Source: Acidobacteriota bacterium
GTDB taxonomy: Bacteria > Acidobacteriota > UBA6911 > RPQK01 > JADFOI01
Direction: 5' to 3'
Assembly (NCBI GenBank): GCA_963663035.1
Contig: OY760074.1
Coordinates: forward strand, 3,258,967 to 3,322,966
Length of the DNA: 64,000 bases
A model generated the notes under the pieces. It had not been told where the DNA came from, made no database searches, and saw nothing but the letters and a program-made list of their open reading frames with translations. Within the stretch, counting starts at the first letter, position 1, and the number at the start of each line of letters is the position of its first letter. This document shows positions 4,924 through 63,291 of the stretch, one piece after another. The position numbers were made by a program, and so were the translations under genes.

Positions 4924-6198
4924 GTGCCTCCCACGCACAAATGCACGAATTACGGTACTATGGGCCTCATGCCTACCATTGATACTCAGCGGCTGAAGCG
5001 CTTGCCGCCCTATCTGCTTGGGGTTCTCAATGACATCAAACTTCGTCTGCGCCAGGAGGGAGCCGATGTCATCGACCTGGGCATGGGCAACCCCGACCAG
5101 CCCACCCCCCAGCACATCGTCAACAAATTGATTGAGGTCGTCCAGGACCGCAAAACACATCGCTATTCCGCCTCCAAGGGTATTCCAGGCTTACTGCGGG
5201 CCATCTGCCGCTTTTACAAGAAGCGCTTTGGCGTGGATCTGGACTGGCAGTCCGAGTGCATCGCCACCATCGGCAGCAAGGAGGGTCTGGCCCACCTGAT
5301 GCTGGCTATACTGGACCCGGGCGACTTGGCGCTGATTCCCAACCCCTCTTATCCGATTCATATCTACAGCGTGGCCATGGCCGGTGGAAACGTTGTGTCC
5401 ATTCCTCTGCGCGAGGAGGAGGACTTCGTTCCCGACCTGGAGTACATTACCAGAGAGATCTGGCCCAGACCCAAAGTTATGACCTTGAATTTCCCTCATA
5501 ATCCGACTACCGCCACCGTCAGCCTGGACTTCTTCGAGGAGATCGTCCGCTTCGCCCGCGATAACCACATTATGGTCATCCACGATATGGCGTATGCCGA
5601 TATCACCTTCGATGACTGTAACGCTCCCAGTTTTTTGCAAGTGCCGGGTGCCAAGGATGTAGGGGTGGAATTTTACACCATGTCGAAATCTTACAACATG
5701 GCCGGATGGCGGCTCGGCTTCTGCGTGGGCAATCGAGACATCGTGGCAGCTTTGGCCAAGATCAAGGGCTATCACGACTATGGTATTTTTACTCCGATTC
5801 AGGTCGCCGGCATCGCCGCGCTGGACGGTCCGCAGGACTGTGTTGTAGAGCAGGCCAAGATCTACCAGAACCGACGGGACGTCCTGTGCGATGGGCTCAA
5901 CCGCATCGGCTGGTCGGTCAAGGCGCCCAAGGCCAGTATGTTTACCTGGGCGCCGATTCCGGAGCCCTATCGAGAAATGGGCTCGATGGAGTTCTCTACC
6001 CTGCTGATGCAGGAGGCCCATGTGGCGGTGCTGCCTGGAGTCGGCTTCGGGGACCTGGGTGAGGGGTATGTGCGCATTGCCATGGTGGAAAATGAGCACC
6101 GGCTTCGCCAGGCCATTCGAAACATTCGCCGCTGCTTGACGAAGCTCGAGCCCAGCGATCCACAACTGGAGCAACAACAAATGAGGGTGAGGAGTTAA
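4924..6198 (+). CDS. class I/II PLP-dependent aminotransferase (AlaT/AspC/DapL-like)
   Basis: [21 protein letters not shown]-lysine context [13 protein letters not shown]; true start probably M at 4960. Confidence 0.75.
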
Positions 6199-12220: not shown

Positions 12221-12234
12221 GGTGATCTCCTGAC

Positions 12235-12415
12235 TAGCCCGCATTATGCATAGGTTTACGTAGCAAAGTGGCGAAAGCGCCGCGATGACAAGGCGTGCTA
12301 CGAAGCGCCCCGCAGGCGTACTCTTGCAGTACGCCGAGGAGCGCAAGGAAGCACAACGCCGTCAGCGCGGATGATTGCGACACTATTGCAGAAAATTTAT
12401 GCATAATGTGGGCTA
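12235..12415 (-). repeat. family-1 MITE-like repeat, copy B (short variant, reverse orientation)
   Basis: TA-GCCCGCATTATGCATA ... TATGCATAATGTGGGC-TA; the two ends co-vary (GCAT/ATGT). Confidence 0.75.
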
Positions 12416-12536
12416 AAAAGCACTTCCTTCATCCTTGCTGCTTGTTAATACGGACCGCAACCAGAAATGTTTCTGACCGGGCCGGGTGTTCCTATCCTCC
12501 CTTCAGGTTATACTCAGTACAAAGGCTACCGTATTG

Positions 12537-15194: not shown

Positions 15195-15407
15195 TAGCCG
15201 GGATTATGAATAAGTTTCCTACTGCAGTGCCGCAATCATCCACGCTGACTGCGTTATGCGACCCGCAAAGCGGGTACCCCTTGGGCTCCTCGGCGTACTG
15301 CATGAGTACGCCTGCGGGGCCCGACCCGCAAGCGGGTGCCCTCGCATGCCTTGTCATCGCGGCGCCAGCGGCACTTCGTCACGAAAACCTATGCATGATC
15401 CCGGCTA
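15195..15407 (+). repeat. family-1 MITE-like repeat, copy C
   Basis: TA-GCCGGGATTATGAATA ... TATGCATGATCCCGGC-TA (CCGGG/CCCGG compensatory swap versus copy A). Confidence 0.75.
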
Positions 15408-15527
15408 AGCATCTTTCCTGGTTGCTATTTTTCCTTTTATTGGAGACCATTGGTTTGATGTTTCTGCCAGGTATCCGCCCGCTTTTTTGTGTGCCCGATT
15501 CACCCTTCCACCGTTGAGGAGAGCAAG

Positions 15528-18120: not shown

Positions 18121-18518
18121 GGCGGGTGTCCAGGAAGGCCAAGCTCGTCGTTCTCCGCGCCCTTCGATCCTCGACGTAACGTAGTACTCACTTTCATAAA
18201 TACGATAACGTTTGTTGGGAGCGCGACGGAGCCCAGATCGAGGCGCGACGACGAGTCGATGTCGAGACATCGGCGAGGAGAAGCAACAAAGAGATGGGTC
18301 CGTCGCGCCCCAACCCTTCGGGCGGACGGGGGTTGCGAGCGATCTCTTTGTCTCTCGTCGTCGTCGATGTCCCTGACATCGCCTCCTCCTCCCTTCGCGA
18401 CCTCGCCTCGCAAGCCCCATCCGTAAACATTACCGTATTTATGAAAGGGAGTACGTAGACTACGTCTGCGGTCGAAGGGCTTGTGCGGTCTCGATCTTGA
18501 CCTACCTGAACACCCGCC
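18121..18518. repeat. family-2 foldback repeat, copy 2 (with ~100-bp internal palindromic insertion)
   Basis: Starts 1 nt after the GH15 stop; TIR GGCGGGTGTCCAGGAAGGCCAAG / CTTGACCTACCTGAACACCCGCC; shares >90% identity with copy 1 over the shared parts. Confidence 0.75.
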
Positions 18519-18597
18519 AACAACTCACCTGTCCGCGGCCTCGCTACATTCGTTATAATGGTTTCAGAGAAGTAATGACCTTCCCCAGAGAAACCCA

Positions 18598-18806
18598 AGC
18601 CCGTATTATGCATAAATTCTCTACTGCAGCGACGAAATCATCCGCCCTGCCCATGTTGCGCGACCCGCAAGCGGGTACCCCTCAGCTCCTCAACGTACTC
18701 AAGAGTACGTTTGCGGGGGCCGACCCGTGGCGGGTACCCCTCGCGCGCCTTGTCAGGTCGGCGCTTTCGTCGCTTCGTGACAAGAACCTATGCATAATCC
18801 GGGCTA
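18598..18806 (+). repeat. family-1 MITE-like repeat, copy D
   Basis: GCCCGTATTATGCATA ... TATGCATAATCCGGGC-TA; lacks the two distal hairpin modules present in copy A. Confidence 0.75.
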
Positions 18807-19660
18807 GCCTCCTCGCCATTGGCCTGTTCTATGTGACGGTGAGCTTCACCCCGTTGTCCGCCACCGGCCAGGATGAGGGTGCCCTCAGGACAGAGGCTGG
18901 GACTTGGCCGTCTCAGAGCTCTCGCCTGGTTCGCTTTGCCAACGATGCCCTGACAGTGGAAGTAAAAGATGCTCCGCTGGAGGAGGTGCTTCGGGAAGTT
19001 GCCCGTCAGAGCGGTCTCAGTATCGTGTGGTATGGCACAATCTCAGAGAGTATCTCCATAAGCTTTCAGCGGCTCTCCCTGGAGAAGGCCTTGACTCGGA
19101 TCTTGCGCAATCACAGTTTTGCCCTGGCCTACTCTCAGGCTCGAGAGGGTCCCTCCAAGGATGCACGACTGAGGGAGCTGTGGATTATCCCCAAAGGAGC
19201 AAAAGGCGCTCCGGTCCCATCCACTGTTGTTGTGTCCAAGACCGAAGAGGACCTTCTCCGGGAAGAAGCCACAGATTTCGCCCTGTTGCGAGCTGCCCTC
19301 AGGAGTGACGATTCCTGGGAACGGGAAGATGCAGTGGAGGCCTTGGCAGAGATAGGACGCCCCGAGGCTGTACAGTTCCTGCGTCCGGCCCTGAGGGACG
19401 AGGATGAGGATGTGCGGGAGGCAGCCATTGCCGCTCTTGCTAACATCGGTGGAGATGAGGCAGCCCTGGCCTTGGCCATCGTCCTGCAAGACGAGGATGA
19501 GTGGTTCCGTGAGGAGGCTGTAGAGGCTCTGGGTGAGATCGGCGGAGAGAGTGCCATTCGGCTTCTGGAGCAAGCCTTGGAAGATGAAAACGAAGACGTC
19601 CGCGAGATCGCTGCAGACCTGCTGGAAGAGCTGAGAGAGAACTCTAGCGAAAGGCCCTAA
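18803..19660 (+). CDS. secreted protein with STN-like domain and HEAT/PBS-lyase repeats
   Basis: Signal-like LLAIGLFYVTVSFTPLSATGQ; VEVKDAPLEEVLREVARQSGLSIV (STN-like); four EDVREAAIAAL-type HEAT repeats; 5' end lies in repeat D, start codon uncertain. Confidence 0.5.
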   Translation, partial: ASLLAIGLFYVTVSFTPLSATGQDEGALRTEAGTWPSQSSRLVRFANDALTVEVKDAPLEEVLREVARQSGLSIVWYGTISESISISFQRLSLEKALTRILRNHSFALAYSQAREGPSKDARLRELWIIPKGAKGAPVPSTVVVSKTEEDLLREEATDFALLRAALRSDDSWEREDAVEALAEIGRPEAVQFLRPALRDEDEDVREAAIAALANIGGDEAALALAIVLQDEDEWFREEAVEALGEIGGESAIRLLEQALEDENEDVREIAADLLEELRENSSERP

Positions 19661-21337: not shown

Positions 21338-22006
21338 TTGCCTGAGGATGAGTTGTTTATCATAATAGGTTCCAATAATATGCTGCCCCGTTCAGACTAT
21401 TACAGAATGCCGGCCAATCCCTGGATTAGCTTCAAGTACTGTGACCTCACGAAGCTGATCAAGCTGCGCGTGAGCCCGAGCATCAGAAAGCGCTACAAGA
21501 ACTTCGACGGCGCCATAGCCCTGGGAGAGATGGCTCCTGAAATCGACCTCAAGGGCGATAACGGTGAGGGGTTCCGCCTTTCTGACAGAATTGGCAAGAA
21601 GAACGTGGTTCTGGTCTTTGGCGCCATAACCTGACCGCCCTATCGCGGGCAGGTGTCCGCCATAGAGGAGGTGGCCAGGAAATACCATGATGCCGAGATC
21701 TGGCACCTGTATGTCCGGGAGCCGCATGCCCAGGAACGCGGATTCAAGAAGTATTTCAAGCACAAGGACTACCAGGATCGGGTTGCCTATGCTCAGGAAT
21801 TGCGCGAGGTCATGAACATCAAAAGCCCCATTGTGCTGGACGGCATGGATGAGAAAATTCATCTCCAGTACGGGAACATGCCCAATGCTGTCTATGTCGT
21901 CGACAAGGAGGGGAAGGTCGTCTACAAGGCCAACTGGACTGACTCAGCTGTGGTGGACCAGGTCCTGGCTGAGTTACAGGCTGAGGAAGCCAGTCCGGGG
22001 CTCTAG
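21338..22006 (+). CDS. iodothyronine-deiodinase-like thioredoxin-fold selenoprotein candidate (in-frame TGA at 21632-21634 read as Sec)
   Basis: Two same-frame ORFs separated only by TGA; context VVLVFGAIT-U-PPYRGQ matches the deiodinase active site FGSxT-U-PPF; thioredoxin-fold C-terminus; candidate SECIS hairpin GCGG-GCAGGUGU-CCGC 12 nt downstream. Confidence 0.6.
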
Positions 22007-22207
22007 CCCGGATTATGCATAGGTTCTCGTCATGAAGCGGCGAAAGCGCCGGAAAACAGAGCCGCGGGCTTTAGCCCACGGGCCCGCAGGCTAAAGCCTG
22101 CGGGCCCGACTGGCGCGCGAGGGGTACCCCGCTTGCGGGTCGCGCAACGCTGGCAGGGCGGATGATTTCGCCGATGCAGTAGAGAATTTATGCATAATCC
22201 GGGCTTA
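22004..22207 (-). repeat. family-1 MITE-like repeat, copy E (reverse orientation; its terminal TAG is the stop codon of the upstream gene)
   Basis: TA-GCCCGGATTATGCATA ... TATGCATAATCCGGGC-TTA; carries the distal hairpin modules but only one GACCCGCAAGCGGGT dyad. Confidence 0.75.
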
Positions 22208-22237
22208 AACCTGGAACTTATAGAGAGGGAGGAACTT

Positions 22238-24686: not shown

Positions 24687-27103
24687 TTATGGCATCAGGG
24701 GCATCCGCAGCAGCAGGTCGGTAAAGCGTGGATCGTCGCGGAGGGGGTCCCACGCTGGGCTTACTTTGAGAAAAGTCAAACCAGTTTCTCGTTCCGCGAA
24801 TGCCTTCTCCAACCACTCAAAGGCTTGGTCCTTTTCACCCAGGTAAGTATAGATGCCGGCAAATGTGACAGGTGAGACAGACTCACCCCGTTTTAGGCTT
24901 TCTGTCTCGTAGTCCAGCCACCACCGACTGAAGGCCTCTTTACCCGAAGCCGCGGCATCTGCAAGTCCTGCTACCTCTTCCTGGCTGGCTCCCCCAAGGA
25001 TCTGATCTCTTTGAAAAGCCACCGCTGCTTCCTGGTACTGCCCCATTAGAAAATATGCATAGCCCATCCTGTTCCAGGCCAGCTGGAAGTCTGGATTGAT
25101 CTCCAGCGCCGCCTCACTCTGCTCTATGGCTTCACTGTATCTACGGGCGTTAATAAAGTGTAGTGCTACAGCTTGTCTAGCCTCCAGGCTGAGTGGATCA
25201 AGCTCCTGAGCGCGCCTGATCTGAGCGATCGCTTCATCATGCTGACCCATTGTTGACAGGGCAAAGGAATAACCATAATGGGCCCGGTAAGAGCTGGGGT
25301 CGAGCTCAAGGGCTATTTTGTATTCCCTTTCCGCCCCCAGGTCGTCCCAATAGTAAGCACGTTTGAAATCTCCCAGGGCTGCGTAAGCTTCGGCCAGCGT
25401 GTTGTCGATCTCCAGTGCTCTCTTCGCCATCTCCTCCGCTAATGGCATGCCTTCCTGTACAGGTATGGCATCAAGAAAGACTGCAAGCGAATAGTAGGAT
25501 CGGGATAGGGCTGTGTAGGCTCGGGCGTAGTTTGGATCTTTTTCAATCGCTTTCTTGAAGTGCTGGATTGCGTTATCTACAGTCTCTCCCGTCAACTTTG
25601 CGTATTCAGCCTGACCCTTCAGATAGGCTTCATGTGCTTCGCTATTGTTGGTATAGCGTTTTGCTAGTTGTTCTTGCTCCTTGCCACTCAACTGGAGTCC
25701 CAGAGCATCGGCAATCTCCTTGCTGAGGGATTCTTCCATTTCATACAGTGCTGATCGTGGCCGGGTGTAGGTTTTCCCCCACAGCGTGCTGTTGTTCTGT
25801 GCATCCACCAGTTCCACATAAATCCTCAGGTTCTCTCCCTGGGAGGTCATGTTCCCGGTGACGACGGCTCCTACATCGACCTCTTGTACTACGGTCCCGG
25901 CATCTACGTCCTGATCCTTGTAGCGCCTCATTGAGGTACTGGAAATGACCTTCTCCAGTTCAGACAGCTGAGAGAGCCGGCTGATAATCCCCTCGGCAAG
26001 CCCGTCACTCACGTACTCCAACTCAGGGTCACCACTGCGGTTTTCAAACGGCAGGATGGCAATGGAATCGATGGCCTCGGCAGGAGCAGCAGTGAACGGC
26101 CAAAACAAGCAGCAGTGAACGGCCAAAACAAGGCGAGAAGCAAAAGGACAGCTAAGACCACTCCTCCACCCACCCCAGGCCAAAAGTAAATCCGCTTAGC
26201 TGGAATAGCTGCGGGTACGGTTGCAGTGGCGACTGACTCACCCGATGTATCTCTCTTCAACCTCTTCAGATCCACTAACAACTCTTTGGAAGACTGGCAA
26301 CGAATCTCCCTGTCTTTCTCCAGAGACTTGTTGATGATGTCCTCCAGCTTGTCAGGCAAATCCGGATTCAGTCGCACTGGAGCTGTAGGGGCTTTATTCA
26401 GAATCTCATCAAAGACGACCGCTGTCGTGCTTCCCTGAAACGGTAAACTCCCGGTCGCCATCTCATATAACACCACACCCAAAGAGAAAAGATCTGTCCG
26501 AGCATCCAGTTCCTCACCCCGCGCCTGCTCAGGCGACATGTAAGCGACTGTTCCCAAGGCCGTCCCAGGACTGGTGAGAGCCTGCTCCGACACCTGAGCG
26601 GTGGGCATTCTGGAGTCCACTTCCGTTTGCTCCTGGGTCAGCTTGGCCAGGCCGAAGTCCAGGACCTTGGCGTCGCCCCGCTGGGTGATGAAGATATTGC
26701 CCGGTTTGATGTCTCTGTGGACAATGCCCTTGGAATGAGCGGCATCTAAAGCATCGGCAATCTGGCTCCCCAGATCCAGCAGCTCGTCCGTTTGCATGGA
26801 GCTTCCCTGGATGCGGTGCTTGAGTGTCTGCCCTTCCAAAAACTCCATGACGATGAAGGGCTGGCTCTGGTGTTCGCCAATATCATGGATCACACAGATA
26901 TTCGGGTGGTTGAGGGCCGAGGCCGCCCTGGCTTCTCTTTGGAACCGTTCCAGGGCCTGTTTGTTCTGGGCGAACTTCTCAGGCAGAAACTTCAGGGCCA
27001 CATTGCGGCCCAGCCTGGTGTCTTCGGCCTTGTAGACGACACCCATTCCTCCGCTACCGAGTTTCTCCAGGATTTCGTAGTGTGAAATGGTTTGGCCGAT
27101 CAC
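24687..27103 (-). pseudogene. Ser/Thr protein kinase - TM - TolB-N-like - TPR protein, frame broken by a perfect 23-bp tandem duplication at 26086-26131
   Basis: Hanks kinase motifs ([25 protein letters not shown]) in 26009-27103; TolB-N-like plus about 8 TPR repeats in 24687-26183; the peptide LFWPFTAA is encoded twice; deleting one 23-bp unit restores one ORF. Confidence 0.65.
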
Positions 27104-29573: not shown

Positions 29574-29661
29574 GTCGTTGCCTCCTCGAAGGCCTGATGA
29601 TTCATTAAATAGAGTTATGACGGAAAGTATAGTCGTTGAGATCGATTAAGGAAAACAATTA

Positions 29662-29838
29662 TAGCCCGCACTATGCATAACTTTTCTGCTACAGTGTCGC
29701 AATCATTCGCGCTGACGGCGTTGTGCGACCCGCAAGCGGGTACCCCTCACACGCCTTGTCATCGCGGCGCTTGCGCCACGTCGCTACGAAAACCTAAGCA
29801 TAGTGCGGGCTAGCCGGGACCTTTGCATAATCCCGGCT
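29662..29838 (+). repeat. family-1 MITE-like repeat, copy F (shortest) plus adjacent 27-bp TIR-only mini-element (29812-29838)
   Basis: TA-GCCCGCACTATGCATA ... AAGCATAGTGCGGGC-TA-GCCGGGACCTTTGCATAATCCCGGC-TA. Confidence 0.7.
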
Positions 29839-29880: not shown

Positions 29881-30588
29881 CTAAGCGGCAGCCAAAGACT
29901 GCAGGAGTTGGCGCTGGTCCTGGCTGTCGCACTGAAGGAATTCCAAAGCTACTGAGTTGAGTGTTTCTCCTCCACGCTCGACCTGTTTTGAGCGCAAGAT
30001 CGAGCCCACGGCATCGATTTCACAGGAGGGTTTGAAGTGGACTTTCAGCGCCAGTTTATCTCTCACTTTCAAGGGAAGGTTGGTTTCAAATTCCAATCCC
30101 CCCACACCGATATTCTGGGTCGTGAAGTTGACAAAGTGCTCACCGACCAGCTGGGAGACGGCAGCATCGATCACGGTGAGGAACAAAGGGATTCGTGCGC
30201 GAACCCGGTAAGATTTCCTGCCCTGTGCTGTTACGCCTTCGCTCCTGACCCACACTGCCACCAGCTGGCCAGGCGCGCCCATGATCTTGACAACCTTTGC
30301 ATCCCAGAAGAAGGCAACCGGCCCTTCATCCCAGTACTGGATTCGTACTCGTTCTCCTTCTCCGAAAGGGAGTTGCGAGGCCGGTTTGGCAAGCTCCAGG
30401 CAGATTTCCTCCGAGGAGCTGTGGGTCACAGTGGCCGCGACCTCTCCTTTTGATTCTGTATGGATGGATAAAACTAAGCCTGTCTTGAAGAACAGGTTTG
30501 GGTAATGACCGGAGCCTGTCTCTGGCTCTTGGCTGACTTGCGATGCTGGGTAGGGCACTTGGGGTGCCCCATGCTTTTTCAAGTTCAT
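29881..30588 (-). CDS. PilZ-domain protein (YcgR-N-like plus PilZ)
   Basis: RVRARIP (RxxxR) and NIGVGGLEF (D/NxSxGG) c-di-GMP-binding motifs. Confidence 0.6.
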   Translation of the reverse strand: MNLKKHGAPQVPYPASQVSQEPETGSGHYPNLFFKTGLVLSIHTESKGEVAATVTHSSSEEICLELAKPASQLPFGEGERVRIQYWDEGPVAFFWDAKVVKIMGAPGQLVAVWVRSEGVTAQGRKSYRVRARIPLFLTVIDAAVSQLVGEHFVNFTTQNIGVGGLEFETNLPLKVRDKLALKVHFKPSCEIDAVGSILRSKQVERGGETLNSVALEFLQCDSQDQRQLLQSLAAA

Positions 30589-33503: not shown

Positions 33504-33662
33504 GGTCTTCTCCCCTTTTACCCAAAGGATAAGCCTTCAGAGATTCGAAGGCAACAAGGGAAACCGAACACAAAAGTCAGAAGTCAGAGGCAAAATATCC
33601 TTTGCTGGCTTGTTCAGTGTGCAGACTTCGGTCACTATATATAGAGCCACAGAGGCACTGTT

Positions 33663-34001
33663 ATGAAAAGAAAAGAGAAAAGGGTAGCAACTCGGGTTCA
33701 GGTACCGCTTGCAGGAAGCGTGACTTTTGAGGCTAAAGGAAAAGGGCTGCAAACGATTCAAGTGGTCGCTAAGGATGTTAGCGAAGACGGCACTTTCCTG
33801 TGGGTGGACAATCCCGAAACCTTCCCTCTTGTGGGTGACAAGGTAGGAATCAATCTGAGCTGCTCTTCTGATCTCAAGCGGGTGAAGCTAGCCATGGAAG
33901 CCTCTGGGATCGTTACCCGTGTGACTCGGCCCAAAGGGGGTCAACCTGGATTTGCAATCCGGTTCGAGGAAGTTCCGATCTGGGGTAAAGGAGCCAGCTA
34001 G
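33663..34001 (+). CDS. PilZ-domain protein
   Basis: RVATRVQV (RxxxR) and DVSEDGTFL (DxSxxG). Confidence 0.55.
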   Translation: MKRKEKRVATRVQVPLAGSVTFEAKGKGLQTIQVVAKDVSEDGTFLWVDNPETFPLVGDKVGINLSCSSDLKRVKLAMEASGIVTRVTRPKGGQPGFAIRFEEVPIWGKGAS

Positions 34002-34048: not shown

Positions 34049-36647
34049 GTGGGAACCCGTATGTCGGAGGACATCTCTAAAATAAAAGAGAAGAGGAGTT
34101 TTACCCTACCAATCCGGAAGAGGCGTGCAGCTGTGAGATCCGAAGGCTATCAGGAAGTAGTGAGAAGGCCCTGGGAGGTTCTTGACCAAGAGATCTTCCC
34201 TTACCTCAATGTTGAGAGATTGTTTGCAGATGTTCGAGGGTTGAAACGCTACGGTCGCTTCTGGCATGGTTCCTGTCCCATCCACGGCGACCTGCAAGGT
34301 GCCTTCTCGATTGATCCGGAAAGACTGGAGTGGAGCTGTGCTCTGGGGTGCGGGGGAGGTGGTCCGGTCCAGTACCTGCAGAAGCTGCGCGGGCTGTCCT
34401 GGATGGACGCTGCGCGAGAACTGGCCAGTCTGGCCGGAGTAGAGCCATCAATTTTCGATCCTTGGCAAGAACACTGGACAGAAGAAGACTTTCTCCTGCA
34501 CGCGAGGTTGGAAAGCCGGTCCAGCCTGCTGGGATTCTTTATGACCTATACCCGATCTTTTTATCGGTCTCTGGCCGGTCAGACAGTCCGCAGTCATCTC
34601 ATCACCCGACAGGGTTTCCCCGAGAACAAGCTCGAGGAGCTTGATCTCGGGCTGTACACCGCCCCGGAAGACGTGTGGCACTGCCTGAAGAAGACAGGAC
34701 GTGATTTGGAAGAGGTCCGTTCGTGGGGCTTGTTTGAGGCGCCATGGAGCGGTCGCATAGTGGGTTGCTGGAAGGACCTTCAGGGCAGAAGAATTAATAT
34801 CTGGGGTTGGCAGCCCAAGGAGACTTCCACCGGACAGGCCAGTATGGAGGGACGCATCCTTTTTGAACAGGGCGATGCTTTAGGTGGGAAAAGCGTCCCC
34901 TTCAATCTGGATGTTGCTGCTGGTTTGGAAAAGCGTGATCTGCTCCTGTTGGAGAGCCCTATCAAGGCCCTCTTTACCCAGTCCCTGGGTCTTGAAGACC
35001 CCTTTCCCGTGGCGGCAGGAGGAGACCTGAACAGCGTGCAGATTGAGGCTATGCAGAAGCACCTTCGCTTGGGCGGCGCGCTGACCGTCTGTTGGGACTA
35101 TGATCCTGAGACTGACGGAACCAAAAAGGACAGAGCCTTTACCACGCTGCAACGATTGAAGAAAGCAAACTTTCCTATCTACGTCGTGAATCCGGCATGC
35201 CTGGCAGATCAGAGCAGGCCAAAGCAAAAGGTTACGGTCAATGACTTTATCCTGAGACACGGAGGAGGTGAGAAAGGGCTTCAAGCTTTTCAAGAGCTTC
35301 TTGAGAAACCAGAGAAGTATGAAGCGGAAATGATTGTCGACGGAACAGCTTTAGGAAACCAGAGCGGGATCTGGCCAGGGGTCTTGGAGATCTTTCACAG
35401 TTTCTCCTCCAGAAACTCTAGAGCCTCCGCCAAAGCAGATGAAGACGAGATCATCTCCGAACGCCTTCAAGCTCTGGAGCCCATGTTCCAAGCAGCTGAA
35501 GAGATCGGACGCAGTATAGCCAAAGGTTTCTTAGGTGGTCTACCCAGGCGTCTTGCCAATGAGTTGGCGGGCGAGGCCTCTAATGGACTGCAGCTCGCCT
35601 CACATTCCGCCGGAGAATTGGCCAGTCTTCCCGTTCAGATTTCGAGTCCCCCCACTTTCTCCGTTGATCGCCTGGGAGAGGAAACCCGTGCGGCTCCACT
35701 AGTCGAACTTTCGGGTTGGCAGGCACTGGACAATCTGGAGGTTCGCTTCAACCCGGGAGAGCTGGCCGTTTTAGGGGGGCGCACAGGGCACGGAAAAACC
35801 TCGATGCTCCTGGGTCTACTCCTGGAGTGGCTCGAGAAGGCCGCTGTACAGGGGACAGACAAGCTTTTTCTTTTCTATTCCGTGGAGGAACCGGAGGTTC
35901 GCATCTATCACCGCCTGTTGAGTCTTTTAACGGCCAGAAATGGAACGGGCTGGACCATCCATCAAGTCGAAGACTATCTGAAACAGAAAAATGGTCATCC
36001 GGTTGAGTATTCGCCCCTTGATCCGGAAACCTTGGAGGCTGCCGAAGGACGTTTCCACTCTTGGGAAGAATGTCTTCAGATTCTCTACCAGCCCACCTGG
36101 ACCATAGCAGAACTGGAGACCTATGCTCGGAATTTATCCGAGAGCCGAAAAGTGGGGGCGATTCTTGTGGATCACCTACAGCGCATTCCACCACCAAAGG
36201 GAACGCATGGCCGCCGCGATGTGGAGATTTCCACCGTCGCTCATCGCCTTAAGACCTTGGCGGTCGACCTGTCCTGTCCCATAGTCACAACTGCTCAAAT
36301 TGGGCGGCAGGCTCTTCAGCGAGCACATAAAATCCCTGCCAAACAAGCCCCTTGGGGATGTGAATGTGCTGGGAGCCATCAAAATGCGTCGTCCCCAGCT
36401 CCAACACCTGAGAGAGGGTGGAATTGAGCAAGAGGCGGACCTGGTCCTTGGACTGCTGAACTACGCGGCCGATTACCAGGCTGAGATGGAGGAACCAGGG
36501 TCGATCGCCGCCACCACACCTTTCGAGGTGGGCACCCTCAAGAACCGGTATGGGCCTGTGGGCTGTTGGGCTTCCCTTCGCTTCCAAGGGCGATTCGGAT
36601 TTTTGCAAGATCCGGGAATCCTAGCCCACCTGATGCTGGCCCTTTGA
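34049..36647 (+). CDS. T7 gp4-like primase-helicase (DnaG zinc finger plus Toprim plus DnaB-like helicase), +1/-1 frameshift near 36300-36340
   Basis: CHC2 finger CPIHGD...CALGCGGGG; Toprim E...WDYDPETDG; Walker A GGRTGHGKTS; VDHLQRI, TTAQIGRQ; the DnaB C-terminal motifs (RRPQLQHLREGGIEQEADLV, NRYGPVG) continue only in the other frame. Confidence 0.65.
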
Positions 36648-36696
36648 ATCACCAAGACGTGTTCCGGGCTAGCCCACCTGATGCTGGCCCTTTCCA

Positions 36697-36943
36697 AGCC
36701 CGCATTTCTCACACCAGGTCGTCGCGAAGCGGTGAAAGGACCGGAAAACAGAGCCGTGGGCTTTAGCCCACGGGCCCGCAGGTTAAAGCCTGCGGGCCCG
36801 ACTGGCGCGCGACAGAGTCCCCCCGCAGACGTACTCTTGAGTACGTCGAGGAGGCCGAGGGGTACCCGCTTGCGGGTCGCGCAACACAGTCAGGTCGGTT
36901 CATTGCGCCGATGCAGTAGATCGGGTGTGAGAAACGCGGGCTA
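36697..36943 (-). repeat. family-1 MITE-like repeat, copy G (variant termini AGCCCGCATTTCTCACACC / GGTGTGAGAAACGCGGGCT)
   Basis: Internal modules (CCGTGGGCTTTAGCCCACGG, CCGCAGGTTAAAGCCTGCGG, ACGTACTCTTGAGTACGT, ACCCGCTTGCGGGT) match copies A and E; termini differ but remain mutually inverted. Confidence 0.7.
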
Positions 36944-39900
36944 AAAGAAAAGTGCGGGCACCCAGGGTAAGACTGAATAGAGCAGGCACCAGGAAGATGG
37001 TGAAGATGGTGGAAACAACCATACCACCGATGACGACACCACCCAGACCTCGATAGAGTTCCGAACCGGCCCCCGGGAAAAGAACCAGCGGCAGCATCGC
37101 TAGAACGCTGGTGGAAACACTCATGAAAATGGGCCGAATGCGGTTTTCCACAGCTTTTCCAATGGCTTCGTCCGAAGGCAGCCCTTCTTCACGAATGTGG
37201 TTGAGTGACTGGTGGACGATCAAAATCGCATTATTCACGACTGTACCAATCAGGATGATGAAGCCCAGCATGGTCAGAACATCCATCGGCTGATAGGTCA
37301 GAAAAAGATTGATGGCCTTCAGCCCGAGAAAGCCTCCCAAGGCTGCCAATGGTACGCTAAACATGATCACGAAGGGATAGAGAAAACTCTCGAACAGAGC
37401 CGAAAGTAAGAGATAGGTAATCACCAAAGCCAGAATCATATTCAACTGGAGGGCACGGCCGGCCTGGGCCAGCTTGTCGGCGGTTCCGCTGAGGGACACG
37501 CGGTATAGACCGCCCAATTGGCCAGCCTCCGTCATGGGTCCGAGAACTTGCTCTTCGATCAGCTCCATCGCCAATTCGATGGGCATCCGTTCGGCTGGGT
37601 TCACGCGCAGCGTAATGACTCGCTCCCGCTCACGGTGGTTGATCTGTACCGGTCCATCGACTCGGGAAATCTCTGCCACTGAACCAAGCGTGACCAGCTG
37701 CCCCGATGGAGTGGCGATGGGCAGCTGCTCAAGCAAATGGGTGCGTCTCTCGTAATCCTCCTCCAACATGATCTTCAGATCGATTTCCTGGCTCTGGTAT
37801 CGAAAATCACTGGCTTTGACTCCGTCAATGAGTGCGCTGACCGTAAAGCCGAGATCCCGATTGGAAAGGCCCACTTCAGCCGCTCTTTGTCGGTGGATCA
37901 ACACTTGAAGTTCGGGGTTTCCAAGGTCCAGACTCGGAATGGGAAGGATCTGGGCATCCGGCATGATTCCCAGCAGCCTGCCAAATGCCTCGCCCCCCAG
38001 CTCAATGAGTCTTTCCAGCTCGGGGCCCGTAAATTCGATGTCGATGTTTCGCCCCTCGTTCATGGCGGTCTGAAAAATACTGTACTGGCTGAGTACCACA
38101 AACGACCCGGGAAGCTGGAAACCGACCTTCTGAAACTCTGGAAGCAGTTCCCGAACCCGCAGCGGATCGCGCGATTGCACTCCCATGAAAGCACTGTCAC
38201 TCAGGGCCACGGTAAAGAACCCACTGATGCCGCCCCCCGGCTGGGCCTCAGCTTCAGGGGAACCGGGTGTACTTTCCCACAGATGTGAGAGCGCCTGCAC
38301 ATAGGGTTGGCGCATCTCGGCGACTTGATCCACGCTGTAGCCTGGCGGGGGAAGGATGAAACCGAACAGGAAGTTCTGATTTCCCACCGGTAGATACTCT
38401 GCACTGGGCATGAGCCGATAACTGAATCCGAGGGCGGCAGCGGTTAAAATGACGATCACCGCCAGGCGCGCCAGTGTCGATCTGTTGATCCAGGTGACGA
38501 CATGGACGATCAGGCGGGTAAAGGCCCGGCCTGGGTGGAACCTTCTCCAGGTGCTGGAAGGAACACCAGCATCGGACTTGTTCGTTCCCGCTTTCAGGAT
38601 TTTAGCCGACAGGGAAGGGATCACGGTGATGGAAACGATCAAACTCAGTCCCACTGCACAGGTGACAGCGATGGCGATGTCGCCAAAGAGTTGACCCACT
38701 TCCTCCTGCATGAAAGCTATCGGCAAAAAGACGGCGATGGTGGTCAGGGTGCTGGCCAGAACCGCCCCCCACACTTCTCTGGTGGCCTCAAAGGCTGCCC
38801 TCCGGCGAGACTCTCCACCCTGGCGATGGCGATGGATGTTCTCCAGCACCACGATGGAGTTGTCCACCACCATGCCAACGGCAAAAGCCAGACCCGCCAT
38901 ACTGACCACGTTCAGTGTCCGTCCGAACCAGTACATCATCAGCAGGCTGCCGACAAGGCTGATGGGAATGGCCACAGAGATGATCAGTGTGGAGGAAAAG
39001 CTGCGCAAAAAGAGAAGCAGTACCAGGATAGCCAGAATCCCCCCAATAAAGAGGCTCTGACTAACCAGCTCTATAGCGCTGTGGATGTATTCTGTCTGGT
39101 CGTAGACCTGGGCCAACTCCAAGCCCCGGCCAGCCAGCAGGTCGCCGTTAAGGCGCTCGACGGTCTGCTTCACTTCGGCCATCACCTGGAGGACGTTTGC
39201 GCCGGGCGTCCGGATGGCGTTGAGGATGATGATCTCTGTGCCCATCATAAAGACCCTGGCCGCCGGTTTGCGGAAGCCGAGTTCGGCCCGAGCCACATCT
39301 CTTAGGTAGACGGGAATCCCGTTGCGAACCGCCACAACAATGTTTTCGATATCTTCGGTCGAGCGATATTCGCCTACCGTGCGAACGATATAACGGCGTT
39401 TTCCCTCCTCGAAGTCGCCGCCGCTGTAGTTGCGATTTTCCCGGTCCAAAGCGTCGCCCAGTTCATTGATCGTCACCCGGCGAGCGGCCAGCTCCGCAGG
39501 ATCGAAGATGACCTGCATTTCACGCGGCTCTCCCCCGTAGAAGTTGGACTGGGCCACTCCGGGAACCCGTTCCAGCTCGGGCTTTATCGAATCGTTCACA
39601 AAGTCATACAGTGAGACAATATCTCCCACAAAACCGCTCTCTTGAGTGGGGCGAAGCGCGAACCAGGCCATGGCACTTTCGTCAACATTGGTAGTGGCGA
39701 GAACCGGCTTTTCCGCGTTATCCGGATAGGCGGGAACCTGTTCTAGCCGATTGGCGACCTGCAAGAGCGCGGTATCGCTCCTGGTGCCCACCACGAAGGT
39801 CAGGGTCAGGGTACCCGTGCTGTCACGGCTGGAACTCTCCATTTTGACCAGGCCTTCCAGCGATTTCAGCTGTTCCTCCTGCTCATCAATGATCTCGTGC

Positions 39901-40079
39901 TCAATTTCCTGGGGACTTGCTCCTGGCCAGAGAGTGGTGACCAAGACCCGGGGAAGTTCAACCTCGGGAGTCAACTGGACTGGAATTTGGGTCAAGGCCA
40001 GCCCGCCGAACAAGAGCATCAGGATCACGCCCACGGCCGTCGTCACGGGATAACGGATGGATTCCTGGATGATCTTCAC
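36900..40079 (-). CDS. RND efflux transporter permease (AcrB/CzcA family); last ~14 codons and the stop lie inside repeat G
   Basis: 1059 aa, 12-TM RND topology, typical AcrB family architecture. Confidence 0.85.
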   Translation of the reverse strand: MKIIQESIRYPVTTAVGVILMLLFGGLALTQIPVQLTPEVELPRVLVTTLWPGASPQEIEHEIIDEQEEQLKSLEGLVKMESSSRDSTGTLTLTFVVGTRSDTALLQVANRLEQVPAYPDNAEKPVLATTNVDESAMAWFALRPTQESGFVGDIVSLYDFVNDSIKPELERVPGVAQSNFYGGEPREMQVIFDPAELAARRVTINELGDALDRENRNYSGGDFEEGKRRYIVRTVGEYRSTEDIENIVVAVRNGIPVYLRDVARAELGFRKPAARVFMMGTEIIILNAIRTPGANVLQVMAEVKQTVERLNGDLLAGRGLELAQVYDQTEYIHSAIELVSQSLFIGGILAILVLLLFLRSFSSTLIISVAIPISLVGSLLMMYWFGRTLNVVSMAGLAFAVGMVVDNSIVVLENIHRHRQGGESRRRAAFEATREVWGAVLASTLTTIAVFLPIAFMQEEVGQLFGDIAIAVTCAVGLSLIVSITVIPSLSAKILKAGTNKSDAGVPSSTWRRFHPGRAFTRLIVHVVTWINRSTLARLAVIVILTAAALGFSYRLMPSAEYLPVGNQNFLFGFILPPPGYSVDQVAEMRQPYVQALSHLWESTPGSPEAEAQPGGGISGFFTVALSDSAFMGVQSRDPLRVRELLPEFQKVGFQLPGSFVVLSQYSIFQTAMNEGRNIDIEFTGPELERLIELGGEAFGRLLGIMPDAQILPIPSLDLGNPELQVLIHRQRAAEVGLSNRDLGFTVSALIDGVKASDFRYQSQEIDLKIMLEEDYERRTHLLEQLPIATPSGQLVTLGSVAEISRVDGPVQINHRERERVITLRVNPAERMPIELAMELIEEQVLGPMTEAGQLGGLYRVSLSGTADKLAQAGRALQLNMILALVITYLLLSALFESFLYPFVIMFSVPLAALGGFLGLKAINLFLTYQPMDVLTMLGFIILIGTVVNNAILIVHQSLNHIREEGLPSDEAIGKAVENRIRPIFMSVSTSVLAMLPLVLFPGAGSELYRGLGGVVIGGMVVSTIFTIFLVPALFSLTLGARTFLLARVSHTRSTASAQ

Positions 40080-48043: not shown

Positions 48044-48229
48044 AAATGATTTGCGCCGTAATAAGTGATTCTATCAGTATTACCGGGATCGTAATTTCCG
48101 AAGGCCCTCCTGACACGAGCGTCTTGGATGTGATAGAGCGCGAAGACAAGTTGTCAGGTTGCTCGAAGGTTTGACTCGTGACTTCTTGAGGCACACCTGA
48201 TGCACTCTGTGCCAGGCTGGAGGGAAACA

Positions 48230-48362
48230 TGGTGCCGGAGGGGGGAGTCGAAACCTCACGAGAGTCACCCTTCGCCGTATTTATGAAGTGAGCCACTAAG
48301 GTGAGTCCACTCGACTAGTGAAGAAAAGCTAATGTTTTCAATCGCTTCCCTGATTTATCGCC
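48230..48362. repeat. degenerate copy of tRNA-Leu 3' segment plus island arm (oldest att remnant), fused to a family-2-like motif
   Basis: TGGTGCCGGAGGGGGGAGTCGAAACCTCACGAGAGTCACCCTTCGCC then CGTATTTATGAAGTGAG (family-2 subterminal motif) then a diverged R-arm. Confidence 0.55.
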
Positions 48363-48620
48363 AATCATAAATAGGAAGAACGAGTTTTCGGAAGCCACCG
48401 GAAAGAGTCCTCACGCCTTGGTGGTGGGGTCATCCAGGATGTGTCGGGTTCGGGGAGGAAACGAGCATCGCGTACTACAAGCCAGCCTTGCGGAAGAGGC
48501 ATGCGCGAGAGTGTTCCTCTGCGCGTCACCCACTTCATAGCACCACGATCCTGGCATAGTCTTGCGAGCTCAAGTGTTGCCGTTGCATCGCGTGTGTTGT
48601 AATCGAGCACCTCAGCATGT

Positions 48621-49887
48621 TGACCTTGCCCCCTAAAACGAGTCCAGTTTGAATGTTAGGATTTCCGGTTTAGGAAGGAGGCAAGGATGGCAGGGAAGCG
48701 GTTTAGGGCAGAACAGATCATCATGAAGCTGCGTGAGGCAGAGGTGGGTCTGGCCCAAGGACAGAGGGTGGGACAGGTGTCGAAGCAGATGGGGGTGAGC
48801 GAGCAGACCTACTACCGGTGGCGCAAAGAGTACGGAGGGCTCCGGTTGGACCAGGCCAAGAGGTTGAAGGTGTTGGAGAAGGAGAATACCCGGTTGAAGA
48901 AGCTGGTGGCGGATCTGTCTTTGGACAAGCAGATCCTGAAGGAAGTGTCCTCGGGAAACTTCTAGGCCCGGCGAACAGGAGACGAGCGGTGATGTGGGTA
49001 CGAGAGCGATTAGGAGCAGAGCGAGTCTCCGAACGTCGGGCCTGCCAAGTGCTGGGACAGGTTCGATCGACCCAGCGAAGGGAAAGGCAAATTCCCGATG
49101 ATGAGGCCCGATTGGTGGCCCGGATGGTGGAGTTGGCTACGCAATACGGGCGTTATGGCTACCGGCGGGTCACGGCGATACTTCATGGGGAAGGGTGGAA
49201 GGTGAATCCTAAGCGGGTGGAGAGGCTGTGGAGACAAGAAGGGCTGAAAGTCCCGTCCAGACAGCCGAAACGAAGGAGGCTGTGGCTTAATGACGGTTCC
49301 TGTGTTCGGTTACGAGCGGCTCGCAAGAACCACGTCTGGAGCTATGATTTCGTGCATGAACGGACCCATGATGGGCGAGCCTTTCGGCTATTGACGATCC
49401 TGGATGAGTACACCAGAGAGTGCCTCGCCATTGATGTGAAACGGCAGATGAATCACCAAGACGTGTTGGACCGGCTGGCGGAGTTATTCGTTGATCGGGG
49501 AGTGCCTGAGTTTATCCGGTCCGATAACGGATCGGAGTTTACGGCACAGGCGGTCCGGGACTGGCTGCAGGCTGTTGGGGTAAGGACCTTGTACATCGAG
49601 CCGGGCAGCCCCTGGGAGAATGGGTACATTGAGAGTTTCAACGGGAAACTACGGGATGAGCTGCTGAACATGGAGATCTTCGACACGCTGGGGGAAGCCA
49701 AGGTGTTGGTAGAACGCTGGCGGAGGGATTACAATCAGATCCGGCCTCACAGCGCCTTGGCCTATCGGCCGCCGGCGCCAGAGGCCAAACTACCTAGGTC
49801 GCAGGCACTGGATCCAATCCCTTGGAGTGGACTTCAAATGGTCCCGGGTCTAGCATAGAGGGTGGACTCGTTCGTGGGGGCAGGTCA
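48621..49887 (+). mobile_element. IS3-family insertion sequence (1267 bp) with imperfect 27-bp IRs and 4-bp ATGT target duplication
   Basis: IRL TGACCTTGCCCCCTAAAACGAGTCCAG; IRR rc TGACCTGCCCCCACGAACGAGTCCACC; ATGT on both flanks. Confidence 0.8.
48687..49858 (+). CDS. IS3-family transposase OrfAB (HTH OrfA plus DDE/rve OrfB via -1 frameshift at G_GGA_AAC, 48953-48959)
   Basis: OrfA 48687-48965 with HTH and leucine zipper; OrfB rve core ...DNGSEF...; slippery heptamer in correct register; post-shift peptide [15 protein letters not shown] continues OrfB. Confidence 0.8.
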
Positions 49888-50975: not shown

Positions 50976-51171
50976 AGTTTATGCCCTCCTTAAGGTTGGT
51001 GTTTGCCTAGTTATCATACTGTCAGATTCACAGATTGTCAGAAATACGTCAAGCGACGAGAGTTACAGGAATTATCCCCCACTGACTTGAGGTGCCAATT
51101 TGGAGCCTCAAGTCATCAAACTCGGAGATGGGGACGAAATGGGAACAGAAGCCTTCTGTTGTGGGAAAAGA

Positions 51172-51355
51172 TGGTGCCGGAGGGGGGAGTCGAACCCCCA
51201 CGAGAGTCACCCCTCACCAGATTTTGAGTTTGAGCTAAATCCACTCGATTTGTGAAGAAAAGCTGATATTTATCAACAGGTTCTCGGATTATTCACCAAT
51301 CCAAATAAGTGAAAGATGACGAAAGATTGAGCTTTCAACCGGGCCAAAAACGGGC
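51172..51355. repeat. tRNA-Leu 3' 61-nt direct repeat plus conserved ~125-bp R-arm (island junction, no L-arm)
   Basis: TGGTGCCGGAGGGGGGAGTCGAACCCCCACGAGAGTCACCCCTCACCAGATTTTGAGTTTG (59/61 identical to tRNA 3' end) followed by arm AGCTAAATCCACTCGATTTGTGAAGAAAAGCTGATATTTATCAAC... Confidence 0.75.
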
Positions 51356-55794: not shown

Positions 55795-56196
55795 TAGGCG
55801 TGCTCAATAGTGGGCACAGTCTGGGCACATCACCCAACTAACTTACGTTTTATCAATAGGTTGAAATGCCGCACTAGATCTCCTGTCTGGAGAGCACCAG
55901 CTGAAACCCAAGGAATAAACGGGTTTCAGCCGATGTGGGAGACGGAGACAGGGGAGTCAGCTTTCTCGAGTCTGAAAAAGAGAGAAGACTTTTCTGGAGT
56001 GAAAACCATGGTGCCGGAGGGGGGGGAGTCGAACCCCCACGAGAGTCACCCCTCGCCAGATTTTGAGTCTGAGTGAGTTCCACTCGATTTGTGAAGAAAA
56101 GCTTATATTTATCAACCAGTTCCAGGATTCTTCGCCAATCCAAATAAGTGAAACATTACGAAAGATTGAGGTTTGAAGCGGGCGAAAAACGGGCGG
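55795..56196. repeat. composite island-junction repeat: ~210-bp L-arm, tRNA-Leu 3' 61-nt copy (56009-56071) and ~125-bp R-arm
   Basis: L-arm shared with 60447-60616 and 62929-63136 (GCTCAATAGTGGGCACAGTCTGGGCACA ... hairpin CTGAAACCC-AAGGAATAAAC-GGGTTTCAG); R-arm shared with 60678-60801, 51233-51355 and 48279-48362. Confidence 0.8.
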
Positions 56197-60446: not shown

Positions 60447-60801
60447 TAACTAACACTCTATCAATAGGTTAAAATACCGCACTAGATCTGCGGTCTGCAG
60501 AGGCACCCGCTGAAACCCAAGGAATAAGCGGGTTTCAGCCGATGTGGGAGACGGAGACAGGGGAGTCAGCTTTCTCGAGTCTGAAAAAGAGAGAGGACTT
60601 TTCTGGCGGGAAAAAATGGTGCCGGAGGGGGGAGTCGAACCCCCACGAGAGTCACCCCTCGCCAGATTTTGAGTCTGAGCTAAATTCACTCGATTTGTGA
60701 CGAAAAGCTGATATTTATCAACCAGTTCCCGGATTTGTCACCAGTCCAGAAAAGTGAAAGGTTACGAAAGATTGAGCTTTGAAGCGGGCGAAAAACGGGC
60801 G
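60447..60801. repeat. composite island-junction repeat: L-arm, tRNA-Leu 3' 61-nt copy (60617-60677, 61/61 identical) and R-arm
   Basis: See 55795-56196; tRNA-derived core is a perfect copy of 63137-63197. Confidence 0.8.
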
Positions 60802-62928: not shown

Positions 62929-63136
62929 AATTGAGCTCAATAGTGGGCACAGTCTGGGCACACTTTCCCAATAAGTGTTTTTTTCAGAGACTTAAAATGC
63001 CGCACTAGATCTCCTGTCTGGAGAGCACCCTTGAAACCCAACGGGTTCAAGGGGTTCAGCCAAATACGGCTGAGGGAGACAGTCGAATGAGCTTTCTCGG
63101 ATTGTCAAAAGAGACAGAGGACTCTGGCGGGAAAAC
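62929..63136. repeat. L-arm copy adjoining the intact tRNA-Leu (proximal island end)
   Basis: Same ~210-bp arm as at 55795 and 60447, with the hairpin retained via compensatory changes. Confidence 0.7.
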
Positions 63137-63225
63137 ATGGTGCCGGAGGGGGGAGTCGAACCCCCACGAGAGTCACCCCTCGCCAGATTTTGAGTCTGGT
63201 GCGTCTGCCAATTCCGCCACTCCGG
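63137..63225 (-). tRNA. tRNA-Leu (anticodon CAA), class II with long variable arm, encoded CCA
   Basis: Manual fold: acceptor GCCGGAG/CTCCGGC, D-loop with GG, anticodon stem CCAGA/TCTGG, loop CT-CAA-AA, variable arm CGAGGGGTGACTCTCGTG, T-arm GGGGG-TTCGACT-CCCCC, discriminator A, CCA. Confidence 0.85.
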
Positions 63226-63291
63226 CGCGTGAAGGCAGTATAACCCGATGAATTCAAGGGGGCCAGGGGAGCGGAGGTCGAAAGCACGAAC

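Follow-up and report, generated by a model that had tools for sequence, protein, structure and literature searches.

The 64,000-nucleotide stretch of contig OY760074.1 from an Acidobacteriota bacterium that was analysed here (the window) carries a gene for a primase-helicase fusion protein, in which a DnaG-like zinc ribbon and primase fold precede a DnaB-type helicase domain. It is probably this lineage's copy of a conserved, chromosomally inherited Acidobacteriota gene encoding a protein of about 828 amino acids (aa), bearing a lesion that is either recent or artefactual. The lesion was located by comparison with two sister assemblies, L036 and L037, both found through an identical PilZ protein. 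Over 6.4 kb, L037 and the window show no substitutions and differ only by an extra C at position 36339 and by 52 bp at 36617-36668; the L037 gene is intact (828 aa), with a start equivalent to GTG 34133 of the window and the ending QDPG-TAG. L036 differs from the window by three substitutions in about 6 kb and is also free of the extra C; in this assembly, an element of the IS3 family of insertion sequences (IS) interrupts the same gene at the position corresponding to 36477. Relatives read KIP(A/P)NKPLGD across the shift site without interruption. Alignment to the orthologue with 89% identity had placed the extra base at G 36338, an assignment superseded by C 36339 from the near-identical assemblies. 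Neither version of the site, carrying the extra base or lacking it, had an exact match in a pattern scan of JGI metagenomes, and the loci recovered from these metagenomes with protein seeds were all relatives with 77-91% identity, all in a single frame. The lesion is private to the window assembly and represents either a very recent inactivation, which is slightly favoured, or an assembly error, which is a serious possibility; the gene in the window is neither an old pseudogene nor a mobile-element remnant at this site.

A protein search yielded 26 relatives of about 825 aa, all intact, with identities ranging from 89 to 35%; those carrying names are Acidobacteriota metagenome-assembled genomes (MAGs), some of them on contigs of 5-7.6 Mb. 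With each GTDB species represented by one genome, a scan returned 16 loci, nearly all from Acidobacteriota, the others being Kolteria novifilia (Planctomycetota; 30% identity, full length), a Binatia MAG and a partial match in Desulfarculales. The closest orthologue, L001 (89%), is intact and lies in the same gene order as in the window: M16 peptidase, PilZ, fusion gene, RND pump. L004 and L024 (48-55% identity) have a neighbourhood in common, with an AMP-binding enzyme upstream and a FAD oxidase downstream, and other family members stand alone among housekeeping genes. The ratio of nonsynonymous to synonymous substitution rates (dN/dS) is 0.19-0.24 among the three closest orthologues (0.27 for the neighbouring PilZ gene) and 0.13 downstream of the frameshift site, with no codon decay. 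Neither IMG/VR nor a set of 50,697 phage records yielded a full-length relative. A preliminary description of this DNA had read the gene as the replication module of a phage, plasmid or integrative and conjugative element (ICE), and had taken conserved synteny with an intact orthologue in relatives as an argument for a host gene instead; comparison with relatives revealed just such an orthologue in L001, together with the near-identical intact gene of L037, in a family that is chromosomal down to 35% identity.

The gene is laid out as follows:

34133..36338, forward strand: part of the fusion gene in its original frame, with GTG 34133 as the likely start
about 34214-34444, forward strand: zinc ribbon (Pfam Zn_ribbon_DnaG)
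about 34457-35314, forward strand: DnaG-like RNA-polymerase/Toprim-fold domain
about 35321-35650, forward strand: disordered linker with a conserved helix
from about 35711, forward strand: DnaB-type RecA domain
36339, forward strand: extra C (GCA to GCCA), +1 frame change, missing from L036 and L037
36340..36647, forward strand: remainder of the helicase domain in the +1 frame, RRPQLQHLREGGIEQEADLVLGL, then a foreign tail of 9 aa (ILAHLMLAL) and TGA

The longest open reading frame (ORF; 34049-36427, forward strand) matches Pfam Zn_ribbon_DnaG and positions 4-191 of the DnaB_C profile, and a second ORF in the +1 frame (36300-36647) matches positions 187-250, which bears out the earlier proposal that the C-terminal helicase motifs continue there. 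Taking out one base gives an unbroken DnaB_C match over positions 4-250. The arginine finger lies in KNRYG, within the +1-frame part. The preliminary description had assigned a zinc finger, a Toprim domain and a DnaB-family helicase to the one gene and had proposed searches with profile hidden Markov models (HMMs); these searches recovered Zn_ribbon_DnaG and DnaB_C, but the repaired window protein matched none of the Pfam Toprim models. The Toprim assignment comes solely from the fold and a weak DnaG profile match; the profile match to the RNA polymerase domain (RPD) of S. aureus DnaG has an E-value of 2.8e-7. Scores against the NCBIfam equivalogs are low: 98 bits against a cutoff of 385 for DnaB (TIGR00665), covering only model positions 180-427, and 46.5 bits against a cutoff of 283.6 for DnaG (TIGR01391), covering positions 27-340 of 414. 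The protein has neither the DnaB N-terminal domain nor the C-terminal (helicase-binding) domain of DnaG. PADLOC defence models gave no credible match, with only marginal P-loop and zinc-ribbon hits, none of them better than E 2e-4.

The 3' end of the gene has been remodelled, and the features concerned are:

36617-36668, forward strand: private 52-bp insertion, missing from L037, with a flanking TCCGGG direct repeat at 36611-36616 and 36663-36668
36621-36645, forward strand: copy 1 of a 25-bp direct repeat, CTAGCCCACCTGATGCTGGCCCTTT, within the 52-bp insertion
36669-36693, forward strand: copy 2 (the original) of this repeat; TAG at 36670-36672 is the native stop in the sister strain
36694-36947: copy G of a repeat resembling a miniature inverted-repeat transposable element (MITE), supplying the last 16 codons of the RND gene (FLLARVSHTRSTASAQ) and its stop
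36900..40079, reverse strand: convergent RND (AcrB-type) pump gene (Pfam ACR_tran, E 1e-216), with its C-terminal tail replaced by the MITE
48620-49882, forward strand: IS3-family element (Pfam rve, rve_3 and HTH_21 in orfB), with 33-nt imperfect inverted repeats

The 25-bp repeat at the stop codon, already reported from the bare sequence, is exact; shuffled sequences give no such matches. Copy 1 ends within the TGA stop (36645-36647), and copy 2 is 2 nt from MITE copy G. In L037, the 25-mer is present once and the stop reads GGC-TAG. The 52-bp insertion, which displaces the stop codon and adds nine residues, consists of a copy of the neighbouring 25-mer and a 19-mer (36645-36663) identical to 49449-49467 in the interior of the IS3 transposase gene; all the other repeated 19-mers in the window belong to known repeat families, and chance would give about 0.015 pairs per window. 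A 17-mer within the 25-mer (36624-36640 and 36672-36688) also recurs at 5290-5306, in an aminotransferase gene and in the same frame (LAHLMLA). This mosaic may have arisen as templated filler where a break was repaired or by template switching, and the insertion, if real, would be a rare visible footprint of such events in a bacterium. Homology to L001 ends at 36613 and resumes at 36951, an interval of 107 bp in L001 versus 337 bp in the window, most of which is MITE G; the sister L037 carries this MITE copy too. To judge from these alignments, MITE G entered the 3' end of the convergent RND gene, and the 25-bp duplication is a separate event. The earlier view that a repeat insertion had remodelled the 3' end is correct as regards remodelling beside a MITE, but it was the RND gene that the MITE hit, and the 25-bp duplication came with the private 52-bp insertion. 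The junction in L036 (L036 5816-6339) matches window positions 48620-49149 at 99.8%, and the IS3-family element appears to be active in this population. That the 25-mer is only a relic of the old C-terminal tail of the RND gene is a weak proposal (23/31 identities to L001), and that it belongs to a CRISPR-like array was rejected (a 25-nt repeat with a 23-nt spacer, no cas genes, an aminotransferase 17-mer in the repeat and a single copy in the sister assembly).

The AlphaFold model of the full-length protein (predicted local distance difference test score, pLDDT, 78.7) has two well-folded halves separated by a disordered stretch of about 110 aa (residues 388-497), within which the helix AAEEIGRRxAxGF is nearly invariant. 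The N-terminal 390 aa (pLDDT 90.5 in the AlphaFold2 model) superpose on the zinc-binding domain (ZBD) and RPD structures of Aquifex, S. aureus and E. coli DnaG. In Foldseek searches, their best match in the PDB was Aquifex DnaG ZBD+RPD (E 3e-14), other DnaG polymerase domains followed at E 1e-5 to 1e-9, the template-modelling (TM) scores of these DnaG matches being 0.5-0.6, and the T7 gp4 primase reached an E-value of only about 1e-2. Walker A, Walker B and the arginine finger are present in the C-terminal 300 aa, which superpose on the C-terminal domain of DnaB and match cellular DnaB structures with a Foldseek E-value of about 1e-18 and a profile E-value of 2e-24. Both halves are far closer to cellular DnaG and DnaB than to T7 gp4. 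The protein shares with T7 gp4 and eukaryotic Twinkle the order of zinc ribbon, Toprim-type primase fold, linker and DnaB-family RecA domain in one chain, and, like them, it has no DnaB N-terminal domain; it differs from them in its long, disordered linker and in being encoded on the chromosome, outside any replication module. The label "T7-gp4-like" used previously holds for the architecture but not for the parts, and the fusion can be described as a gp4-like design built from cellular-type components, because the structure matches favour DnaG and DnaB over gp4. It is no ordinary DnaG or DnaB either: the family falls far below the equivalog cutoffs, its Toprim acidic residues are not conserved and the gene is dispensable.

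The catalytic motifs of the two halves have fared differently. The zinc ligands (CxH...CxxxC) are invariant in the acidobacterial members, Walker A is mostly intact, and the Walker B Asp and KxR finger are conserved in the family. These helicase motifs are present in the intact orthologues and in the repaired window sequence; as assembled, the frameshift splits off the arginine-finger segment. The Toprim motifs, by contrast, are degenerate across the family, their correspondence being taken from a profile alignment to S. aureus DnaG:

EGxxD: E(G/D/S)P(I/L)x in the family, with D, V, P or Q in place of the Glu in some members
DxD: a 4-residue insertion in the family, with DYD, DYN, NYH, NHD, SYD or SYE
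DPD(E): TVNDF and variants in the family, with DPDE lost

The window protein has ESPIK, DYD and VND at these sites. The equivalent metal-binding residues of E. coli DnaG are E265 and D269 (EGxxD), D309 and D311 (DxD), and D345 and D347 (DPD). A set of unnamed proteins of about 820-890 aa (P0159, P0162, P0165, P0170 and P0175) has the same length and the same order of zinc ribbon, DNAG_N, Toprim and DnaB_C, and its primase half is 28-37% identical; these proteins keep LVEGxxDA, DxD-GG and DPDE and match Pfam Toprim models, whereas the acidobacterial family does not. The zinc ribbon, which the acidobacterial family retains, has been lost in animal Twinkle. The two are alike in their decayed primase motifs and conserved helicase motifs (PMC3610141, PMC2241861); changes in its primase domain have left animal Twinkle a helicase only (PMC3610141), and the N-terminal domain of Twinkle helps it to bind single-stranded DNA (PMC2241861). 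The motif comparisons and the parallel with Twinkle suggest that the family is a ring helicase with a non-catalytic or nearly non-catalytic primase-like half. The DnaB-type domain would be expected, by homology, to form rings and to move along single-stranded DNA at the expense of ATP, and the primase-like half would probably serve in DNA binding or loading, as in animal Twinkle, rather than in primer synthesis, because the canonical metal-binding motifs have been lost across the family. A frameshifted primase-helicase gene is, as such, ordinary; the family is of more interest, as what may be an unnamed, chromosomally fixed bacterial counterpart of Twinkle, in which the primase site decays while the zinc ribbon and the helicase motifs are kept.

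Independent disruptions of the gene were found in 5 of about 33 loci examined, the window included:

window: +C at 36339
L002: +T near codon 178
L013: -C, in a short-read MAG
L019: inserted gene for an IS256-like transposase of 427 aa
L036: IS3 insertion

The gene is therefore dispensable and seems to be accessory, and the carrier genomes are presumed to have canonical dnaB and dnaG. The disruption rate is suggestive of a conditional cost of the gene. The three near-identical assemblies, which differ essentially only by events in this gene, provide a natural test of conditional harm.

Several observations weigh against the reading of the gene as a conserved chromosomal helicase, dispensable and recently hit. 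One subclade has Arg in place of the Walker A Lys, so ATPase activity is not universal; the clade of the window keeps the Toprim Glu and DYD, which leaves residual primase activity possible there; and five disruptions in about 33 loci are not clearly above the background for a 2.5-kb gene, given that two of about 55 window genes are broken. As for the lesion, two indels without a single substitution relative to L037 would also fit an assembly error, and both adjoin a site that is polymorphic for an IS. It is quite conceivable that the frameshift and the 52-bp insertion are both assembly or consensus errors and that the organism has an intact 828-aa gene like that of its sister strain: both lesions are private, the sequence after the shift has not decayed, the gene-position index has no entry for the frameshifted product, and a strain mixture with and without the IS insertion 140 bp away (L036) could upset the local consensus. 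The extra C lies outside any long homopolymer (C to CC), however; about 20 other window genes have full-length Pfam coverage, and the only other broken gene in the window has a perfect 23-bp tandem duplication, atypical of base-calling error. In addition, the 52-bp insertion, with its 6-bp flanking repeat and its 19-mer from an active IS, looks biological, and in the sister strain an IS has truly disrupted this gene.

That the gene is the stranded, decayed replication module of a phage, plasmid or ICE that formerly lay here is improbable. Fusions of DnaG and DnaB are a recurrent design among phages (PMC4889955), the primase half has relatives joined to DUF927 and DUF3987, which are helicases of mobile elements, and the cyanobacterial (Geminocystis) plasmid NZ_AP014816.1 encodes a full-length relative (tblastn, 24% identity). 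In L022 (5486-7584) and L025 (1166-6196), the most divergent orthologues from complete genomes, the gene adjoins a prophage-like island with DUF6551, ERF, Sipho_Gp157, HTH_17 and a tyrosine integrase, and MatE lies downstream in both. The orthologues are nevertheless intact and under purifying selection, in conserved chromosomal neighbourhoods free of mobile genes, the phage records and IMG/VR yielded no full-length relative, and a frameshift that is days to years old on the evolutionary scale is no relic. Only deep in the ancestry of the family is a mobile origin plausible; the cyanobacterial plasmid relative, the DUF927 and DUF3987 fusions and the prophage-like islands speak for that possibility.

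Programmed +1 ribosomal frameshifting yielding a full-length protein is very improbable. With the +1 frame open as of 36285, slippage at any point up to about 36345 would give back the full protein, and CAT-AAA-A is a weak Lys slip site. The A site, however, holds neither a rare codon nor a stop codon, and no known +1 motif is present; L002 and L013 have their breaks elsewhere (that in L013 in the opposite direction), and this mechanism is excluded because no relative, the 100%-identical sister included, is shifted here. It is just as hard to credit that this protein takes the place of separate DnaB and DnaG as the only replicative helicase-primase of the organism; some members carry the JGI label "replicative DNA helicase" and the architecture would suffice in principle, but the degenerate Toprim motifs and the bit scores far below the DnaB and DnaG cutoffs speak against it, and the gene cannot be the only replicative helicase because it has been independently disrupted in several loci, by IS in L019 and L036 and by indels in others.

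The conserved chromosomal gene has a small neighbour with which it may act:

33663..34001, forward strand: PilZ-domain gene, 112 aa (Pfam PilZ, E 2.8e-5; 24.8 bits against a cutoff of 22.5)

The PilZ motifs of the window protein are RVATR (RxxxR) and DVSEDG (DxSxxG), and its relatives have R(A/T/I)ATR and E(A/S)SE(D/E)G. A PilZ gene (104-112 aa) lies directly upstream of the fusion gene in the window, L001, L006 and L028, and directly downstream of it in L003, L007-L011 and L030-L033, a clade with about 76% identity; more distant family members are without this partner. Repeat-mediated rearrangement would be a simple explanation for the swap in order, and is plausible because MITE copies fill intergenic gaps in those relatives too. 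The linkage hints at control of the fusion protein by the second messenger cyclic di-GMP (c-di-GMP). A more elaborate proposal, for which the odds are clearly unfavourable, is that PilZ and the fusion protein constitute a c-di-GMP-responsive accessory DNA-helicase module, domesticated from a mobile primase-helicase, with a non-catalytic primase half used for DNA recognition and a cost under some conditions; if true, it would explain the repeated knockouts, even among near-clonal strains, by IS, frameshift and mosaic insertion. A second PilZ-domain protein is encoded at 29881-30588 on the reverse strand (235 aa, Pfam E 2.6e-9), just past the M16 peptidase, making two PilZ genes within 4 kb of the fusion gene. 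In L001, a PemK/MazE toxin-antitoxin pair (711-1282) is found between the M16 peptidase and PilZ genes; it has no counterpart in the window, where the breakpoint lies at 33568/33602, and is the sole departure from the shared gene order.

The start of the ORF at 34049, as initially listed, was rejected in favour of GTG 34133, which is the start of the 828-aa gene call in L037; the stretch upstream is not kept as a reading frame and is better described as a leader:

34057..34132, forward strand: conserved non-coding 5' leader, kept as DNA across the clade

Relatives show frame-breaking indels and in-frame stops here, though the DNA is conserved. The leader is about 75-100 nt long and has a TAAAAT box, with equivalents in L001-L003, L007-L011, L015 and L030. 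When 10 leaders were folded jointly with RNAalifold, no conserved structure was convincing (-7.65 kcal/mol; covariation term positive), and a scan of the window against Rfam at the gathering threshold found tRNA-Leu only, with no riboswitch in the leader.

The fusion gene had been said to have no other mobile genes nearby, which is true locally, but the window as a whole contains the IS3-family element and seven MITE copies:

2708-2976, 12228-12433, 15196-15410, 18597-18809, 22003-22209, 29644-29819 and 36694-36947: copies of the MITE-like family

Members of this family are about 180-270 bp long and have the terminal inverted repeats TAGCCCGGATTATGCATAGG. In copy G, both terminal inverted repeats have changed in concert (TTTCTCACACC), and copy F carries an additional, incomplete terminal repeat in tandem. 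Copies are also present in intergenic gaps of the relatives L003, L008, L015, L030 and L031. Elsewhere in the window, a Ser/Thr kinase-TPR gene (25239-27103, reverse strand) falls into two frames because of a perfect tandem duplication of 23 bp (TGTTTTGGCCGTTCACTGCTGCT twice) near 26095-26140, and its homologues at 97% and 89% identity read straight through. A 76-nt piece of tRNA-Leu occurs in five copies (48215-48290, 51157-51232, 55996-56071, 60602-60677 and 63123-63198), 2.5-4.8 kb apart and with further shared repeats between them, the tRNA-Leu gene itself being at 63138-63226 on the reverse strand; these pieces look like tandem elements integrated there, with no integrase among the ORFs scanned. 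A separate repeat family, at 2185-2433 and 18148-18504, consists of 142-nt and 109-nt segments that are 90-95% identical and have internal inverted repeats.

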